Source: Candidatus Multivorans sp.
GTDB lineage: Bacteria; Acidobacteriota; Thermoanaerobaculia; Multivoradales; Multivoraceae
Length of the DNA stretch: 64,000 nucleotides
Direction: 5' to 3'
Assembly (NCBI GenBank): GCA_965224025.1
Contig: OZ245033.1
Span: forward strand, 1,152,001-1,216,000
Below are positions 7,237-57,275 of the stretch, in pieces. Made by a program: the position numbers and the translations under genes. The notes beneath the pieces are model-generated. The model was not told the DNA's origin, did not search any database, and saw nothing but the letters and a program-made list of their open reading frames with translations. Numbering within the stretch: position 1 is the first letter of the stretch; each line of letters begins with the position of its first letter.

Positions 7237-9180
<1,944 letters not shown>

Positions 9181-9181
9181 G

Positions 9182-9211
9182 AGTCAGCGCTGCGTCCGCG
9201 CAGCGCTGACT
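9182..9211 (+). terminator. 13-bp perfect hairpin immediately after acs (terminator or REP-like)
   Basis: AGTCAGCGCTGCG-tccg-CGCAGCGCTGACT; only TT follows, so there is no clear U tract. Confidence 0.5.
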
Positions 9212-9239
9212 TGCAGGGAACTGGTCGCCGACTGGGTGC

Positions 9240-9257
9240 GCGGGTCTTCTGACCCGC
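9240..9257. repeat. REP-like palindrome, family A
   Basis: GCGGGTC-TTCT-GACCCGC, identical to 43456-43473. Confidence 0.6.
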
Positions 9258-9402
9258 TGCCGCCGGAGGCGGCCAGAGATACGTGCCGGCCGTCAGGCCG
9301 GCTCCGCTTTGGCGGCCAGTTCCCTGCAAGCCTGCGCGGCAGTCTCATTCGGCGCCCGCTGCGGCCCGTGAGCCCCCCGGCGGCTACACTCGGAGTCGGA
9401 CC

Positions 9403-23030: not shown

Positions 23031-25067
23031 CTACTCCGGCAGGCTGAACGCGACGTACTCGCCCCCCGAGGGCCCTCCCGTCCTACCGCCGCCCGCGGCG
23101 ATCACGACGTACTGCTTGCCGTCCACGCTGTAGACGGCCGGTGTCGCGTACGCCGCGGCCGACAGCTTGGTCTCCCACGGGATCTCGCCGTTCCGCGTGT
23201 CGTAGGCGCGGAACTTCTCGTCCGGCGTCGCGGCGATGAAGATGAGGCCGGAGGCCGTCACCACCGGGCCGCCGTAGTTCACGGCGCCGAAGCCGAGATC
23301 GGGGTGCGAGGGATAGTCGCCGAACGGCACCTTCCAGGCGATCTCGCCGGTCGAAAGATCGATCGAGTTCAGCGTGCCCCAGGGCGGGGAGTTGCCGGGC
23401 AGGTTCTCATGGTCGCGCAGGTAGACGTAGCCGCCGAGGACGTAGGCGACCTCGCCTCTGGGCTCGTCGACCTCGGGTTCGGGATCGAGGATGTACGCCT
23501 CGATGGCGCCGAGCTCGACCCGGTTGAGATGGTCGAAGCCCTCCATGCGGCCGCTGCCCTCGCGGACAATGCGGCGAATCTCGGCAAGCTCCATGCGATC
23601 GCCGACGCCGAGCAGGGGGGCCGCCATGTCGGTGCCCTCGAGTTTCAGCCCGTGACACCGGCCGCAGTGCCGCGCATAGGTGCCGTACCGGCTGAAGCCG
23701 ACGGGCACTTCGGTGAGATTCAGAATGCCGGCGACATCGTTCGCATTGACGATCAGATGGTTGGTGTTCGGGTCGAACGCCGAGCCGCCCCACTCGCCGC
23801 CGCCGTCGTACCACGGCATGAAGAGCACGGTGCCGACCTTGGGCGGCGCCCAGGGGCGCAGATCCCAGTCCTTGATCCGCTCCTCGACGAATTCGCGCGC
23901 CGCCGGGGTGCGGTTCGTGATCTCGACGTCCTGCCGACTGATGACCACGGCCGAAAGCGGCTGCGTCGGCGCCGTCACCTCGCCAGGGAGCGTGCTTGGA
24001 ATCGGCGTTTCGATCTCGTGGATGGGGTACATCGACTCGCCGGTCTCCCGGTCGAAGACGTAGAGCTGCCCCGTCTTCGTCGTGATGGCCACGGCATCGA
24101 TCGTCTGGCCGTCGCGTTCGAGCTGAACCAGGGTCGGCGGCGAGGGGTTGTCCTTGTCCCAGAGGTCGTGGCGGACGACCTGAAAGTGCCACGTCAGTTC
24201 GCCGGTGCGCGCGTCGACCGCCACCAGGGAGTCCGAGAACAGGTTGCCGCCCAGGCGGTTCGCGCCGTAGAAGTCGGGGGTCGCCGACCCGGTCGGCGCG
24301 AACAGGATGCCGCGCTCCTCGTCGAGCGCCATGCCGGACCAGACGTTGGCGCCGCCGGCCCGCTCGAGCGATCCTTCGGCCCAGGTCTCGGAACCGAAAT
24401 CGCCCGGCGCCGGAATGGTGTCGAACTGCCAGACCAGGCTGCCGTCCACCGCGCTGAAGGCCCGAATCGAACCTGGGTACGCGTTGGCGTCCTCGTTGGT
24501 TGAGAAGCCCAAGATCAGCTTGTCCTCGAAGACGACGCCGGGCACGGTGATGTAGATGCGACCGTCTCGGTCCACGTCGGGCGTGAGGTCGAGTCCGCCG
24601 CCGTCGCCGAAGCTCTCGACCGGCGTGCCGTCGTCTGCGTTGAGCGCGATCAGGTCCTTGCCGTGAGTGAAGAAGAGGCGCCTGTCGTCGCCCTTCTCCC
24701 ACCACATCAGTCCCCGCTGGGCGTTGCCCGGCAGGCCCAGGTCGGAGCGCCAGATCTCCTCGCCCGTGGCCGCGTTCAGGGCGAACGCCTCGAGCTGGGG
24801 CGACAGCGCGTAGAGCACCCCGTCGATGACCAGGGGGCTCGTGTACATCGTGGCGCCCGCTCCCCGGGGCTCGCCCGAGTCATAGACCCAGGCGACTTCG
24901 AGCTGGCTCACGTTGTCCCGGTTGATCTCGGTCAGCGGGCTGTAGTGCTGGCGGCCCGAGTCGCCGAGGTAGACGGGCCAGTCTTCATCGGTGGGACCGC
25001 AAGCAGTGATCAGAAACGCCACCACGAGGGGCGCGGCGCGGTTCGAGGCCGGTCGAGCGGATCGCAT
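23031..25067 (-). CDS. PQQ-dependent dehydrogenase (glucose/quinate-type) with inserted c-type heme domain; probable lipoprotein
   Basis: WPVYLGD..QHYSPL.EINRDNV, GGANVW, HDLWDKD, GGGEWGG, PPWGTL, YATPAVY; CGRCH heme motif; lipobox-like LITAC. Confidence 0.9.
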   Translation of the reverse strand: MRSARPASNRAAPLVVAFLITACGPTDEDWPVYLGDSGRQHYSPLTEINRDNVSQLEVAWVYDSGEPRGAGATMYTSPLVIDGVLYALSPQLEAFALNAATGEEIWRSDLGLPGNAQRGLMWWEKGDDRRLFFTHGKDLIALNADDGTPVESFGDGGGLDLTPDVDRDGRIYITVPGVVFEDKLILGFSTNEDANAYPGSIRAFSAVDGSLVWQFDTIPAPGDFGSETWAEGSLERAGGANVWSGMALDEERGILFAPTGSATPDFYGANRLGGNLFSDSLVAVDARTGELTWHFQVVRHDLWDKDNPSPPTLVQLERDGQTIDAVAITTKTGQLYVFDRETGESMYPIHEIETPIPSTLPGEVTAPTQPLSAVVISRQDVEITNRTPAAREFVEERIKDWDLRPWAPPKVGTVLFMPWYDGGGEWGGSAFDPNTNHLIVNANDVAGILNLTEVPVGFSRYGTYARHCGRCHGLKLEGTDMAAPLLGVGDRMELAEIRRIVREGSGRMEGFDHLNRVELGAIEAYILDPEPEVDEPRGEVAYVLGGYVYLRDHENLPGNSPPWGTLNSIDLSTGEIAWKVPFGDYPSHPDLGFGAVNYGGPVVTASGLIFIAATPDEKFRAYDTRNGEIPWETKLSAAAYATPAVYSVDGKQYVVIAAGGGRTGGPSGGEYVAFSLPE

Positions 25068-25169
25068 GGCGAGCAATCGTACTTGCTCGTCGGAGACTGC
25101 TTCTTCCTCGGAGTCGCGTGTATCCTGAGCGGTACAAGTCCAAACGCGGTTCGAAAGGGGAACGACCCG

Positions 25170-26639
25170 ATGAAGAGGCTCACCCTGTCATCCATGCGTC
25201 CGATGACGGACGCATGGACTGCTTCACGAGTGGCGCGGATCGCGCCACTCGGGTTCGTTTTCTCGAGCTTCCTGCTGGCGGCGACGGCTGCCGCGCAGGA
25301 GCCACCGAACATCGTCCTGCTGTTCGCCGACGACCTCGGCTACGGCGCCATCTCCGCTTACGGAGGCGCCGGGATCCCGACGCCGAACATCGACTCGCTC
25401 GGCGAGGACGGAGTGCGCTTCGTGTCCGGCTACATGACCGCGCCGGTCTGCAACCCGTCGCGCAACGGCCTGATCACCGGCCGCTACCAGCAGCGCTGGG
25501 GCAAGGAGCTGAACTCCCAGACCGTACCGCCGATCGGCGCTGCCAGGGGGACTCTCGGCATCCACCACCAAACGATCGGCGACGCGCTCCAGACCGCCGG
25601 CTACACGAACGCTGCGGTCGGCAAGTGGCAATTGGGGATGCGGCGGCTCCTCCACCCGCTCGACCGCGGCTTCGACTACTTCTACGGCATGCCGTCGGGC
25701 ATGAACTACGTCGACCCGAGCTGGCCCGGCGCTCACGCGCTGGAGATGAAGCCGGTCACCCGAGGAAGTCCGGACCGCATCGTCGCGATGTTCAAGGGCC
25801 GCGAGGAGGACGAGCTCAAGGAGTACCAGACCACCCAGCTCGCCCGCGAGGGAACCGACTTCATCGACCGCAACAAGGACAACCCCTTCTTCCTCTACCT
25901 CGCCTTCTACGCGGTGCATGCTCCGATGCAGGTGATGGACGAGCACTACCAGCGCTTCCCGGACTTCGACGACCAGTACCGGCGCGTGTACGCCGGCATG
26001 GTCAGCGCGCTGGACGACGCCGTCGGCATGGTCCTGGCCAAGCTCGAGGAACACGGTTTGGCCGACAACACGCTGGTCATCTTCACCGCCGACAACGGCG
26101 CCATGTCCACGCAGGACACCGAGCGGATTCACAACAGCCCGCTGATCGGCCACAAGCGGAACCTGTACGAGGGCGGCATCCGGGTGCCCTTCCTGATGCG
26201 CTTCCCCGGCCGCATTCCCGCGGGCACGGTCTACGAGCACCCGATCAGCTCGCTGGACATCTTCGCCACTTCGGTGAGCCTGGCGGCGGTGCCGGACGTG
26301 GAGCGCTACCAGCTCGACGGCGTCGATCTGTTGCCGTACCTCGCCGGCGAGCAGGAGGGCGCGCCGCACGAGTACCTGTTCTGGCGCTCGGGGCCGAACG
26401 CCGCGGTCCGCCACGGTTCCTGGAAGCTCCTGATGGCTGGAGGCCTGGAGCGGCTCTACGACGTCGACCGGGATTCGAGCGAATCAGAGGACCTGGCCGC
26501 CGCGAACCCGGATATCGTCGCGAAGCTGAAGGAGGCGTTCGCGCGCTGGAACGAGGAGATGGAGGACGGCCGGATGTCACCGCCCGCCCGGCGCGCGACG
26601 ACGACCTACAACGGCGACACCATCGAGTGGCACATCTAG
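25170..26639 (+). CDS. Arylsulfatase (Cys-type, FGly-dependent)
   Basis: PNIVLLFADDLG, CNPSR (CxPxR), GKWQLG, FTADNG, LYEGGIRVP; signal peptide. Confidence 0.93.
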   Translation: MKRLTLSSMRPMTDAWTASRVARIAPLGFVFSSFLLAATAAAQEPPNIVLLFADDLGYGAISAYGGAGIPTPNIDSLGEDGVRFVSGYMTAPVCNPSRNGLITGRYQQRWGKELNSQTVPPIGAARGTLGIHHQTIGDALQTAGYTNAAVGKWQLGMRRLLHPLDRGFDYFYGMPSGMNYVDPSWPGAHALEMKPVTRGSPDRIVAMFKGREEDELKEYQTTQLAREGTDFIDRNKDNPFFLYLAFYAVHAPMQVMDEHYQRFPDFDDQYRRVYAGMVSALDDAVGMVLAKLEEHGLADNTLVIFTADNGAMSTQDTERIHNSPLIGHKRNLYEGGIRVPFLMRFPGRIPAGTVYEHPISSLDIFATSVSLAAVPDVERYQLDGVDLLPYLAGEQEGAPHEYLFWRSGPNAAVRHGSWKLLMAGGLERLYDVDRDSSESEDLAAANPDIVAKLKEAFARWNEEMEDGRMSPPARRATTTYNGDTIEWHI

Positions 26640-26731
26640 GAGTGTCCGCAGCGTTGTCGCTGCGCTGTCGCGCAGGGAACAGGCAGCGAGTAGCCAACGT
26701 TACAGCGGCGTCGTGGGTTCATAGAGTTGGC

Positions 26732-26887
26732 CGCGCTGGGCAGCGAGGCCGCGCAGGCACTGGTGTGTTGGCGCCCGACTAGGAGTTTGGCCCGGACCGT
26801 GATCGGCGCTCTGACGCTGGCGGCGCGGCTTGTGTCGCGACCCCGTATGCAAGATTGAGCTTTTCGCCGCGGTCTCTGCCCAGCGCG
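26732..26887 (+). ncRNA. Candidate IS110 bridge RNA
   Basis: Closing stem 26732-26753/26868-26887 encloses two parallel loops containing CTAGGAGT (target junction) and ATGCAAG (donor junction). RNA ends are unknown. Confidence 0.7.
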
Positions 26888-26920
26888 ACGATTGGATTCC
26901 ACATCTACGGGAGGCAGGGG

Positions 26921-28240
26921 ATGGCAAAGCGGAAGGCGGAGCGTCTGGAAGTCGTTCACCCGGATTGCGCCGGTGTGGACGTAGGCAAGCGCAAGCACTA
27001 CGTGGCGGTGGCCCCGTCGCGTTTCGAGCGGCCGGTGCGCAATTTCTCGTCGTTCACGGAGGACCTCGAGGTGATGGCCTCGTGGCTTCAGGAGTGCGGC
27101 GTGCGTGAGGTGGCGCTGGAGTCGACGGGGGTGTACTGGATTCCGGTGTTCGAGGTGCTGGACCGGGCGGGGTTCGAGGTGCATCTGGTGAATCCTCGGG
27201 CGACCAAGCAGGTGAGTGGCCGCAAGAGTGACGTTCTGGACTGCCAGTGGATCCGGCAGTTGATGAGCTACGGGCTCCTGCGCGGTGCGTTTCGCGCGCC
27301 GGACGAGTTGTGTCCGCTGCGTTCGTACACGCGGCAGCGCGCCCAGTTGGTCCGCGACCGCAGCCGCGCGGTGCAGCACATCCAGAAGGCTCTGGTGCAG
27401 ATGAACGTGCAGTTGGACAACGTGCTGAGCGACATCATGGGCAAGACCGGCCAGTTGATCGTGCGCGCGATCGTCGCCGGCGAGCGCGACGGCGCGGCGC
27501 TGGCCCGTCACCGGGACGGTCGCTGCAAGGCTGGTCCGGCTGTGATCGCGGCGAGTTTGCAAGGCAACTGGCGAGACGAGCACCTGTTCGCTCTGGGCCA
27601 GGCGCTGGCCCGCTACGACATGCTGCAAGGCCAGATCGAGATGTGCGAGAAGCGCATCGACGCCGAGCTCGACGGCCTGGCCCAAGACGGCGTCGAGGAC
27701 GCGCCGCCGCCCGGTTCGAAGGCGCGCGAGCGCGCCCTGCGGAAGCGGCTGCATCGCATGCTCGGCGTGGACCTGGTCGCCATTCCGACGGTCGGCGTCG
27801 AAACCGCGCTGACCTTCGCCGCTGAGATCGGCCCGGACCTGTCCCGGTTTCCCTCGCAGGGCAACTTCTGCTCGTGGCTGTGTCTGGCTCCACCGACCAA
27901 CATCAGCGGCGACAAACGGCTGAACGGCCCTCCCGTGAAGCAGACCAACCGGGTCGGCCAGACGCTGCGCCAAGCCGCCACCACAGCCCGCAACAGCAAG
28001 ACCGCCATCGGAGCCTCTCACCGCCGGCGTCTCCAGCACATGGAGAAGGCGAAGGCCATCAAGGCCACCGCTCATCAACTCGGCCGACTGATCTACGCCA
28101 TGCTGACCCACGGCGAAGAGTACGTCGAGCGCGACCTCGCCGAAATGGAGGCCGTCCGACGCGAACGACAAATCAGAAACCTGCAGCGTCAGGCCCGCCG
28201 CCTGAATCTGGCTCTCGTGCCGACCGAACATGCCGCCTGA
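26921..28240 (+). CDS. IS110-family DEDD recombinase/transposase
   Basis: AGVDVGK, ALESTGVYW, GRKSDVLD (DEDD), C-terminal ISGDK serine loop; intact frame, RBS GGAGG. Confidence 0.96.
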   Translation: MAKRKAERLEVVHPDCAGVDVGKRKHYVAVAPSRFERPVRNFSSFTEDLEVMASWLQECGVREVALESTGVYWIPVFEVLDRAGFEVHLVNPRATKQVSGRKSDVLDCQWIRQLMSYGLLRGAFRAPDELCPLRSYTRQRAQLVRDRSRAVQHIQKALVQMNVQLDNVLSDIMGKTGQLIVRAIVAGERDGAALARHRDGRCKAGPAVIAASLQGNWRDEHLFALGQALARYDMLQGQIEMCEKRIDAELDGLAQDGVEDAPPPGSKARERALRKRLHRMLGVDLVAIPTVGVETALTFAAEIGPDLSRFPSQGNFCSWLCLAPPTNISGDKRLNGPPVKQTNRVGQTLRQAATTARNSKTAIGASHRRRLQHMEKAKAIKATAHQLGRLIYAMLTHGEEYVERDLAEMEAVRRERQIRNLQRQARRLNLALVPTEHAA

Positions 28241-28292
28241 ATCGCGCAACCTGCGCTGCCAACAAGGAACCCCTACCCGTTTGTTCCATGCA

Positions 28293-28344
28293 AGTCTGCG
28301 CGGCAGAAACGCAACATGGTGAGTTCTGGCGCGCAGACTCCTGG
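28293..28344. mobile_element. 49-bp MITE with 17-bp TIRs, interrupted by the IS110 (its first bases lie at 26636-26643)
   Basis: Reconstructed CTAG-GAGTCTGCGCGGCAGAA-N15-TTCTGGCGCGCAGACTC-CTGG. Confidence 0.7.
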
Positions 28345-28465
28345 CGAGGCTTCGCCTCAGACCGACGAGCATGTCCTTGCGGGCTACGCGAGCCGACGTA
28401 TCGATGCATGGCTCTGGCTGAAACTTGCCTCAACTGTAAAGACCACGCTCGTTCAAGGAGTCTAG
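28345..28465. repeat. 117-bp non-coding unit plus CTAG, copy 1
   Basis: Near-identical to 57093-57209; begins with hairpin GAGGC-TTC-GCCTC and ends GTTCAAGGAGT-CTAG. Confidence 0.9.
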
Positions 28466-28681
28466 TGAGGTGGGGGCTGGGGCCAAACACGGAGCTGCGA
28501 CGGGTTGGCGGCTCTAGCCCGCATGCCTCGCCGATCCTCTTGGTGTGGATCCTCGTTCGGCGGGGATAGACTTCAGTCCCTTGCCGGGGCTCTGCAGTGC
28601 CGTGAGATGGCCTGCCCTCGCTCCGTAAAGCGGACGCCTCCGACCGGAGACGTTCCCTGAAGCAGGGAGAACAAGATCGAG

Positions 28682-57088: not shown

Positions 57089-57275
57089 CTAGCGAGGCTT
57101 CGCCTCAGACCGACGAGCATGTCCTTGCGGGCTACGCGAGCCGACGTATCGATGCATGGCTCTGGCTGAAACTTGCCTCAACTGCAAGAACCACGCTCGT
57201 TCAAGGAGTCTAGCGAGGCTTCGCCTCAGACCGACGAGCTCAACTGTAAAGGTGACGCCCGTTCAAGGAATCTAG
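57089..57275. repeat. Tandem CTAG-[117 bp]-CTAG-[58 bp]-CTAG, copies 2 and 3 of the non-coding unit
   Basis: 57093-57209 matches 28345-28461; 57214-57271 keeps both ends with the middle deleted. Confidence 0.9.

Follow-up and report, generated by a model that had tools for sequence, protein, structure and literature searches.

The window analysed here is a stretch of 64,000 nucleotides from the genome of a Candidatus Multivorans sp. (Acidobacteriota; contig OZ245033.1, positions 1,152,001 to 1,216,000), which carries an element of the IS110 family, named ISa in the following, at 26643-28294. Taken together, the sequence data make it highly probable that ISa is a real, intact and recently active insertion sequence (IS) with a decipherable bridge RNA. 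The alignment of 14 genomic copies fixes the copy number and the boundaries of the element, and the comparison with related loci reveals the fold of the RNA, the covariation of three guides with their DNA partners and a strand order that is reversed relative to that of IS621. All coordinates are window positions on the + strand, unless they are marked with C1 or a locus number (L). The features are collected in Table 1.

According to the proposed mechanism, ISa would encode a bridge RNA with two internal loops from its left end and on the transposase strand. The 5′ strand of the target loop would pair with the right flank and its 3′ strand would match the left flank plus the core, while the 3′ strand of the donor loop would match the right end plus the core. 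The preferred target would be CTAGGAG/nCTGCGCG (the slash marks the junction), located at the tip of small palindromic repeats. Circle formation would give the predicted junction ...GTTCCATGCAAG/TGTCCGCAG (ATGCAAG/TGTCC) with a single AG, and the recombination chemistry would resemble that of IS621.

Boundaries and genomic copies of ISa

ISa has a length of 1,652 bp, with one AG core copy counted at the right end, and its non-coding ends comprise 278 nt (left) and 54 nt (right). The whole-genome search found 14 near-identical copies (99-100% identity). Across these aligned copies, the identity starts exactly at CTAGGAG and stops at ...GTTCCATGCAAG (CCATGCAAG). Each of the 14 copies is preceded by CTAGGAG, beyond which the upstream sequences are unrelated to each other, and nCTGCGCGG-like DNA follows the AAG at the right junctions.

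AG is found at both junctions, and ISa inserts site-specifically, without inverted repeats at its very ends. The base following AAG at the right junction is T in three, C in six and A in five copies, and for this reason the core is AG. The first-pass annotation had proposed the same junctions with the core AGT; the junctions proved to be real, all 14 copies being identical from CTAGGAG to the right end, but the core had to be shortened by one base. By direct sequence reading, CTAGGAGTGTCCGC was found at 26636-26649 and ATGCAAGTCTGCGCG at 28288-28302, and every other string and coordinate given earlier was recovered in the same way. CTAGGAG at 26636-26642 represents the first 7 nt of an interrupted palindromic repeat and overlaps the TAG stop codon of an upstream sulfatase-like open reading frame (ORF; 24663-26639).

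In four DNA runs, the contigs assembled from short reads are interrupted at 26636 and at 28294, and single contigs cross each junction; a contig spanning the whole stretch was not found among the four runs. The read depth within ISa is about 10-fold that of the flank in run X1, a figure that is not a copy number.

A transposase copy with 85% identity (L015, C1:2129243-2130584) has lost its left end including the RNA gene by replacement. The replacement junction lies within a conserved TTTGAATCGTACAGG stretch, beside an unrelated sequence ending ...TATAATCCCCA, and the same sequence truncates L016, an orphan left end described below.

Table 1. Features of ISa and of its insertion site in the window.
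Feature	Position	Strand	Evidence
Left target half CTAGG and left AG core copy	26636..26642	+	Identical in 14/14 copies, upstream DNA unrelated
ISa element	26643..28294	+	14 copies with 99-100% identity; contig breaks at both ends
Left terminal extension: T26643 (putative handshake partner), hairpin GCAGCG-TTGT-CGCTGC (26648-26663), left subterminal inverted repeat GCAGGGAACA (26672-26681)	26643..26681	+	
Bridge RNA gene (putative)	26729..26890	+	RNAalifold and pair counts, 27 lineages
Target-loop 5′ strand, predicted guide GCGCAGGC, pairs with right flank	26751..26758	+	Flanks of own copies, permutation test, point covariations
Distal hairpin of target-binding loop	26761..26777	+	Helix 3; two pairs with 9-10 compensatory cells each
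Target-loop 3′ strand CUAGGAG, equal to left flank and core and so pairing with the bottom strand; U26786 handshake-like	26779..26786	+	
Donor-loop 5′ strand CUCUGACGC, expected site of a fourth guide	26809..26817	+	Loop set by closing stem 26805-08 with 26865-68
Distal hairpin of donor-binding loop, includes GGCGC (26822-26826)	26818..26845	+	Helix 5; 8/11 pairs compensatory
Donor-loop 3′ strand, predicted guide AUGCAAG, equal to right end and core (28288-28294)	26847..26853	+	
DEDD-type IS110 recombinase gene, 439 aa, intact	26921..28240	+	Pfam, NCBIfam, IS621 alignment
Right subterminal inverted repeat TGTTCCATGC (28282-28291), then A, then right AG core copy	28282..28294	+	
Remainder of interrupted palindromic repeat	28295..28344	+	Right arm TCTGCGCGG (28295-28303) pairs with CGCGCAGACTCCTGG (28330-28344)

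The recombinase gene

The recombinase consists of 439 amino acids (aa), and its ORF has the full length in 14/14 copies. It contains the domains PF01548 (DEDD_Tnp_IS110; E 6e-25, 88.2 bits) and, behind it, PF02371 (Transposase_20; E 3e-11, 44 bits), and it reaches 267.8 bits with the NCBIfam model NF033542 ("IS110 family RNA-guided transposase") at a cut-off of 140. The alignment with the IS621 transposase (8wt6_A) is distant (E 1.4e-8), with the GxD, E(S/A)TG and DxxD motifs in register. An SG aligns in a weak second stretch. The catalytic residues of IS621 are named D11, E60, D102, D105 and S241 in the accessible text of PMC11208158, a numbering that was mapped loosely.

The homologue search and two plasmid searches returned only proteins labelled "IS110 family transposase", with ISBth13 and ISGsu4 at 21-23% identity. 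Relatives occur in Gamma-, Beta- and Alphaproteobacteria and in Terriglobia, as well as on plasmids of cultured Burkholderia and Enterobacterales. One relative with 46% identity (L080) is located on the Citrobacter freundii plasmid NZ_CP098333.1 (70227-74498), and Enterobacterales plasmids frequently carry its type (61 records from Citrobacter and 21 from Enterobacter). It is inserted into an IS3-like gene, in the A-rich region of the frameshift, and its A-rich 3′ loop strand resembles the left flank. The core and the boundaries cannot be fixed from one copy, and L080 was not counted as evidence for the guide order.

Comparative fold of the bridge RNA

A stem of about 20 bp, which had been proposed to enclose the guides, does appear in the single-sequence fold of the left end, but this fold has a z-score of 0.52. 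Comparative folding was used because the single-sequence fold was uninformative. For this, 59 related loci were fetched from public genomes, of which two with less than 200 nt upstream were dropped, and the left ends of the other 57, of the window and of one in-genome relative were aligned. The fold alignment comprised the window and 26 of the 36 distinct homologous RNA regions; L022, L041, L042, L051, L052, L053, L062, L066, L067 and L079 were left out as near-duplicate or aberrant.

RNAalifold predicts an outer stem that encloses two internal loops in series, each with a 4-bp closing stem and a distal hairpin. In place of the 20-bp stem, the outer stem consists of nine pairs (26729-26738 with 26881-26890). 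The target loop is closed by GGCC with GGCC (26747-50 with 26789-92) and the donor loop by GGCG with CGCC (26805-08 with 26865-68). Over the 27 lineages, 93.5% of the cells are paired, compared with 36-45% when the partners are slid by 1-3 columns; compensatory changes occur in 22 of the 37 pairs, and none of these measures is attained in 500 shuffles. A sixth short helix within the donor guide has no compensatory support and was disregarded.

Two U-G pairs are invariant in 27/27 sequences and would be C-A mismatches on the opposite strand, and the RNA is therefore placed on the transposase (+) strand. The RNA region is letter-identical in all 14 ISa copies. We infer that an RNA from 26729-26890 is transcribed. 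The sequence TTACAG-N16-TAGAGT, seen by eye as a promoter, is below the consensus threshold and was dropped.

Covariation of the guides with the junctions

Of 58 sources, 51 (the window and 50 of the 57 loci) yielded parsable guide segments with 28 distinct guide combinations, and seven loci did not fit. Four segments vary among the lineages, while the scaffold is conserved. AG is present in every parsed guide segment, as the parsing pattern itself required it. In the window, CTAGGAGT is read at 26779-26786, CGCGCAGGC at 26750-26758, ATGCAAG at 26847-26853 and GGCGC at 26822-26826. Two parallel modules that had been noticed in the left end turned out to be the 3′ strands of the two internal loops.

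The 7-mer of the target-loop 3′ strand (CUAGGAG in ISa), interpreted in the first-pass annotation as left target plus core, has its own copy 100-150 nt upstream in 22 of 28 lineages, compared with 14 of 698 cross-pairings. For the 7-mer of the donor-loop 3′ strand (ATGCAAG), interpreted as right end plus core, the own copy is found at most 120 nt past the coding sequence in 22 of 28 lineages, compared with 10 of 640 cross-pairings. Both interpretations are upheld by this covariation. Counted as distinct 7-mers, 13 of 15 target guides match their own left junction and 8 of 10 donor guides their own right end.

The reverse complement of CGCGCAGGC is GCCTGCGCG, which pairs with GTCTGCGCG with one G-T pair. 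The complementarity of this strand to the right target arm, also claimed earlier, agrees with the insertion sites of the other copies, which had been expected to be of the same kind: all 14 lie behind CTAGGAG, and 11/14 right flanks match CCTGCGC in at least 5 of 7 positions, as do 3.3% of the background 7-mers. Among 38 distinct pairs of 5′ target guide and flank, a mean of 3.37 of 7 positions are Watson-Crick pairs versus 2.53 (sd 0.17) under the null, a value reached in 0 of 5000 permutations, although relatedness inflates this test. Among the close relatives L026, L039 and L023, point covariations of the 5′ target guide are found (CCTGC, CCCGC and CGTGC).

U26786, formerly assigned to the core, agrees with the base at which the element begins in 28 of 31 distinct homologues and is reinterpreted as a handshake-like base. 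The "handshake guide" of IS621 occupies the equivalent position according to the accessible text of PMC11208158.

In L021, the closest relative (86% aa identity), 8 of 13 target-guide letters differ, compared with 13 of 153 positions elsewhere, and this element occupies the site predicted by its altered 3′ guide. The divergence of its guide is apparently a mark of natural reprogramming. Overall, natural covariation confirms three of the four loop strands as putative guides. The 3′ target strand is perfect in all 14 ISa copies, whereas the 5′ strand tolerates mismatches. This pattern fits ISPpu10, for which the accessible part of a preprint (10.64898/2026.03.19.712850) describes a rigid guide (RTG) and a tolerant one (LTG).

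Mirrored strand order

In 22 of 28 lineages the junction-identical strands are located 3′ in both loops, with the core AG, which reverses the IS621-type order and agrees with the first reading of the window. Read as the reverse complement (core CT), the sites fit the RNA geometry of IS621, in which the 5′ strand ends with the core-identical C and the 3′ strand with AG. The recombination site is thus apparently inverted relative to the cassette of RNA and transposase.

As a control, the same approach was applied to ISb (C1:289035-290749), a second IS110 family of the genome with about 12-13 copies, and the canonical IS621 order was recovered: the junction-identical guides CCGGCGCAC and GGAGAGUC are located 5′ in the loops and the complementary CUGGG and GUACAGG are located 3′. 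Like ISa, ISb belongs to the IS110 protein family, carries its RNA in the left end and targets palindromic repeats; unlike ISa, it has a CC overlap at its junctions, and it was not detected with the ISa transposase (tblastn, E 1e-5). ISb is inserted in GCCGGCC..GGCCGGCGCACC/CAGTG palindromes.

A plasmid copy of Burkholderia vietnamiensis G4 (about 51% aa identity) has the mirrored order, too, and the order is therefore regarded as clade-wide. As far as sequence comparison can tell, the mirrored polarity is real throughout the clade.

Recognition of the left end

GGCGC at 26822-26826 had been offered tentatively as a fourth guide. This was refuted: it pairs with 26837-26842 in the donor distal hairpin, a conserved stem with compensatory changes, and its sequence stays the same in relatives with different left ends. 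GACGCU (26813-18), which was compared with AGTGTC of the window copy, lies in a stretch that is constant despite differing left ends, and the match was judged to be due to chance, as were isolated partial matches in L049 and L046.

The ends of the elements are marked by a subterminal inverted repeat of 7-12 bp, represented in ISa by GCAGGGAACA (26672-26681) pairing with TGTTCCATGC (28282-28291). Its position is conserved in 23 rows, 2-5 nt from the right end (3 nt in ISa) and 29-35 nt from the left end; in one row with a left distance of 42 nt the junction was mis-picked. Its sequence covaries in 23/23 rows (e.g., GTTTG with CAAAC, GTTAG with CTAAC, GTTTC with GAAAC). We infer that the left end is recognised via this repeat and the hairpin, and not via a fourth guide.

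The target repeats

The window copy splits the palindrome CTAGGAG/TCTGCGCGG...CGCGCAGACTCCTGG. The last bases of CGCGCAGACTCCTGG complement CTAGGAG, and the far arm of the palindrome reads ...GACTCCTGG at 28336-28344. In total, 136 CTAGGAG sites are present in the genome, comprising 14 junctions, 14 sites in guide DNA and 108 others. At 30 of these 108 the right side matches in at least 5 of 7 positions, and uninterrupted CTAGGAGnnTGCGC sites exist.

The suggestion from the first pass that ISa aims at the terminal arm of a different repeated element was borne out by palindromic units starting with C(T/C)AGGAG. They occur in size classes (about 55, about 100 and 175 bp) that have the 20-bp termini in common; the palindromic units comprise 55-110 bp, and most units are bounded on both sides by CTAG, CTAC or CTGG. 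About 29 units are hairpins of about 55 bp, and the spacing of the inverted termini peaks only at about 25-50 and 75-100 bp. In some units the inverted repeat extends through CCAGG and CCTGG, and a perfect palindrome is located at C1:2895767. Neither an autonomous element with these ends nor an empty site of the repeat was found in the genome; PF13359 gave no match, and the ends of the PF01609 elements are unrelated.

A true CTAG-inserting element of this genome is a 1.98-kb IS with a DDE_Tnp_1 transposase and the terminal repeats CCGAAGTTCTGAGGC, which is present at C1:661733-663710 and in six more full copies; CTAG or CTAA borders it on either side. Furthermore, a 117-bp repeat resembling a miniature inverted-repeat transposable element (MITE; CGAGGCTTCGCCTCAGACC...GTTCAAGGAGT) is located at 28345-28461 with the flanks CTGG (28341-44) and CTAG (28462-65). 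It splits the same unit that ISa interrupts, and the tail of this unit (TGAGGTGGGGGCTGGGGCC...GGCTCTAG) follows at 28466-28517. At least 10 copies of the repeat exist, each with CTAG as flank on either side, and another copy lies in the window at 57089-57218.

Mini-derivatives and mutual targeting

Mini-elements of 54-59 bp (CGAGTCGCGGCGTCCGCGCCGCGCTGACGCA...GTTCCATGCAAG) gave 22 matches on C1 (e.g., 527087, 690836, 1070799). The right end of ISa and the left hairpin are common to them, and their first bases differ from those of ISa. They are preceded by CTAGGAG (8), CCAGGAG (5), ATGCAAG (2) and other 7-mers (7, five of these ending with GAG). This suggests that they may have been mobilised in trans, with little constraint on the start of the left end.

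A non-autonomous IS110 derivative of about 148 bp is located at 9184-9331 (within 9177-9342) in the site CTAGGAG/CCTGCGCGG. The hairpin TCAGCGCTGCG-TCC-GCGCAGCGCTGA forms its beginning, GCAGGGAAC is also present, and the terminal GTTCCCTGCAAG deviates from the donor guide by one mismatch. Similar copies occur elsewhere in the genome.

L016 (C1:909026-909270) and L017 (C1:4134231-4134340) are orphan left ends of a sister lineage with the target guide AAUGCAAG. One of the two immediately follows a mini-element's right end; the other was hit by an element that recombined precisely at the guide DNA and removed the RNA gene's 5′ half. L032 and L074 likewise carry insertions within guide DNA.

In seven lineages (L021, L022, L040, L043, L045, L046 and the in-genome L016) the target-loop 3′ guide equals the right end of a relative (ATGnnAG). 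These lineages sit in tandem directly behind such right ends, so that the elements appear to be each other's targets. The DNA that follows is not matched by their 5′ target guides.

Alternative explanations

Several results weigh against the proposed mechanism. Neither a circle junction nor an empty allele of the ISa locus is present in the contigs of the four DNA runs, which cannot reveal rare circles. For the left end as a single sequence, the fold does not exceed that of shuffles, Rfam gave no match to the bridge RNA, the only hit being a chance AS-traI match (E 0.57) outside the element, and no sigma-70-like promoter was found by the consensus scan. Each of the two junction tests failed in 6 of 28 lineages, and the junctions of the homologues were located by the guide match itself, so that only the position-restricted test with its cross-control is independent. 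Right flanks match poorly in 3 of the 14 ISa copies (2, 3 and 4 of 7 positions), and the complementarity of 5′ target guide and flank is weak in distant lineages. For the start of the left end, no consistent register was found when the 7-mer complementarity of the core and the left-end start was slid along the RNA in 22 lineages, nor did a column-by-position scan for excess matches in 31 lineages reveal a diagonal of complementarity. The donor part of the model is incomplete because the fourth guide was not found.

It is scarcely credible that ISa follows the canonical IS621 order and that the 3′-strand matches are coincidence or a by-product of insertion into its own guide DNA. The guide DNA is itself a target, since elements lie exactly within the CTAGGAG/TTTGG guide DNA of some copies (L017, L032, L074), and the identity could have arisen secondarily; however, the own junction matches at a fixed distance for 13 of 15 different 7-mers, compared with 2% in the cross-control, the 5′ strands contain no segment equal to the left flank or to the right end, and the canonical order was recovered for ISb by the same analysis. 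A recent burst that is now silent, with the RNA not made or circle formation failing, is unlikely as well. The missing promoter-like site and circle junction would fit such a burst, against which stand the near-identity of the 14 copies with their intact ORFs and identical RNA genes, about 22 mini-derivatives at the same kind of site and the limited power of contigs to reveal rare circles.

For the target, it is very improbable that CTAGGAG belongs to ISa as a terminal copy of an internal sequence, so that only the right-hand sequence would be recognised. CTAGGAG(T) is indeed invariant at 14/14 left junctions, but uninterrupted CTAGGAGnnTGCGC sites exist, the CTAGGAG of the window complements the far palindrome arm, and relatives with other 3′ guides sit behind other 7-mers. 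The structure of the repeats fits a junction of target-site duplication and terminus, and a mobility of the repeats is plausible, but host palindromes of the repetitive extragenic palindromic (REP) type, structured and not transposed, with CTAG as a part of the palindrome, are a live alternative with a chance only somewhat below even. The hairpins of about 55 bp, the inverted repeats running through CCAGG...CCTGG in several units up to the perfect palindrome, and the failure to find an autonomous element with these ends speak for REP-type palindromes, and REP targeting is a textbook habit of IS110 elements according to the accessible text of PMC11208160. On the other side stand the several size classes with the same 20-bp termini, the boundaries of CTAG, CTAC or CTGG on both sides, and the other CTAG-flanked elements of the genome (1.98-kb DDE IS, 117-bp MITE).

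Comparison with known systems

The literature was compared on the basis of the accessible text of the cited sources. In IS621, the 5′ strands are identical to the left target and the right end, and the core is CT on the transposase strand (PMC11208160); in ISEc21, the top-strand match is located 3′ of the bottom-strand match (PMC11187229). Like both, ISa has a DEDD recombinase with PF01548 and PF02371 and encodes its RNA on the transposase strand of the left end, with the target loop ahead of the donor loop; in each loop, a distal hairpin separates the 5′ strand from a 3′ strand that ends with AG. ISa also shares with them a 2-nt core at both junctions and a handshake-like base after the target-loop 3′ guide. 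It differs from both in the reversed strand order with AG as core on the transposase strand, in the outer stem that encloses both loops and in the fourth guide, which was not found. The distance of the protein to that of IS621 is also large (E 1.4e-8; 439 aa versus 328 residues in the solved chain). Like ISa, ISPpu10 inserts into a palindromic repeat beside a stem-loop and has one rigid and one tolerant guide interface, but its authors applied the IS621 logic with a CT core when mapping it, whereas ISa is mirrored (10.64898/2026.03.19.712850).

The elements of the IS1111 type (ISEc11, ISPa11, ISKpn4) resemble ISa in the strand order that Siddiquee et al. report for their seekRNAs, with the segment pairing with the top strand located 5′ of the one pairing with the bottom strand, and, in part, in their subterminal inverted repeats with a 3-nt right extension (PMC11187229). 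In contrast to ISa, their RNA is found downstream of the gene for the transposase, while the ISa RNA lies upstream and 54 nt follow the stop codon (PMC11187229). Their repeats have 11-13 bp and a 7-nt left extension (7-12 bp and 29 nt with a hairpin in ISa), and their transposase has about 340 aa (439 aa in ISa).

ISEc21 targets transposase genes or codons of the IS3 family (PMC11187229), and IS4321 and IS5075 are described as targeting the inverted repeats of the Tn21 family. Like these elements, ISa is apparently programmed to recognise a conserved stretch within another repeated or mobile element, and such aiming is not new in kind. The target differs, being the tip of a palindromic repeat for ISa and the right end of a related IS110 element for seven related lineages.

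The combination of a left-end bridge RNA with the IS1111-type order appears to be a new variant, given the accessible texts. It is not stated in the literature searched, as far as its text is accessible; the figures and supplements of 10.64898/2026.10.21.760802, PMC11208160 and PMC11187229 may bear on it, and the first of these, a preprint, contains 86 covariance models, many of which deviate from IS621. Tentatively, and with more doubt than confidence, the clade could be viewed as an undescribed, widespread third architecture of RNA-guided DEDD transposons, with an upstream RNA, inverted polarity and subterminal repeats like those of IS1111, and three guides, the left end being read via its repeat and hairpin; the clade would then be an extant intermediate of the move between element ends that has been proposed for the bridge RNA. 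If this were true, a relaxed reading of the left end would let one ribonucleoprotein mobilise minis of 54-150 bp that share only the right end and the hairpin, and lineages could retarget onto each other's right ends, leading to tandem arrays.

Significance

Bridge recombinases are being developed as programmable tools for genome writing, and their design rules originate almost wholly from IS621-like systems. In the ISa clade, the same RNA scaffold appears to be wired to DNA sites in the opposite orientation, with the stringent specificity in the 7-nt 3′ strands and no fourth guide detected. If large bridge-RNA surveys already catalogue this polarity, ISa remains a well-documented example. The 22 mini-derivatives in one genome represent a natural system for mobilisation in trans and half-site tolerance. 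With 15 target and 10 donor guide variants, including lineages that are apparently aimed at each other's ends, the clade provides data on natural reprogramming, and it bears on the relation between the IS110 and IS1111 architectures.

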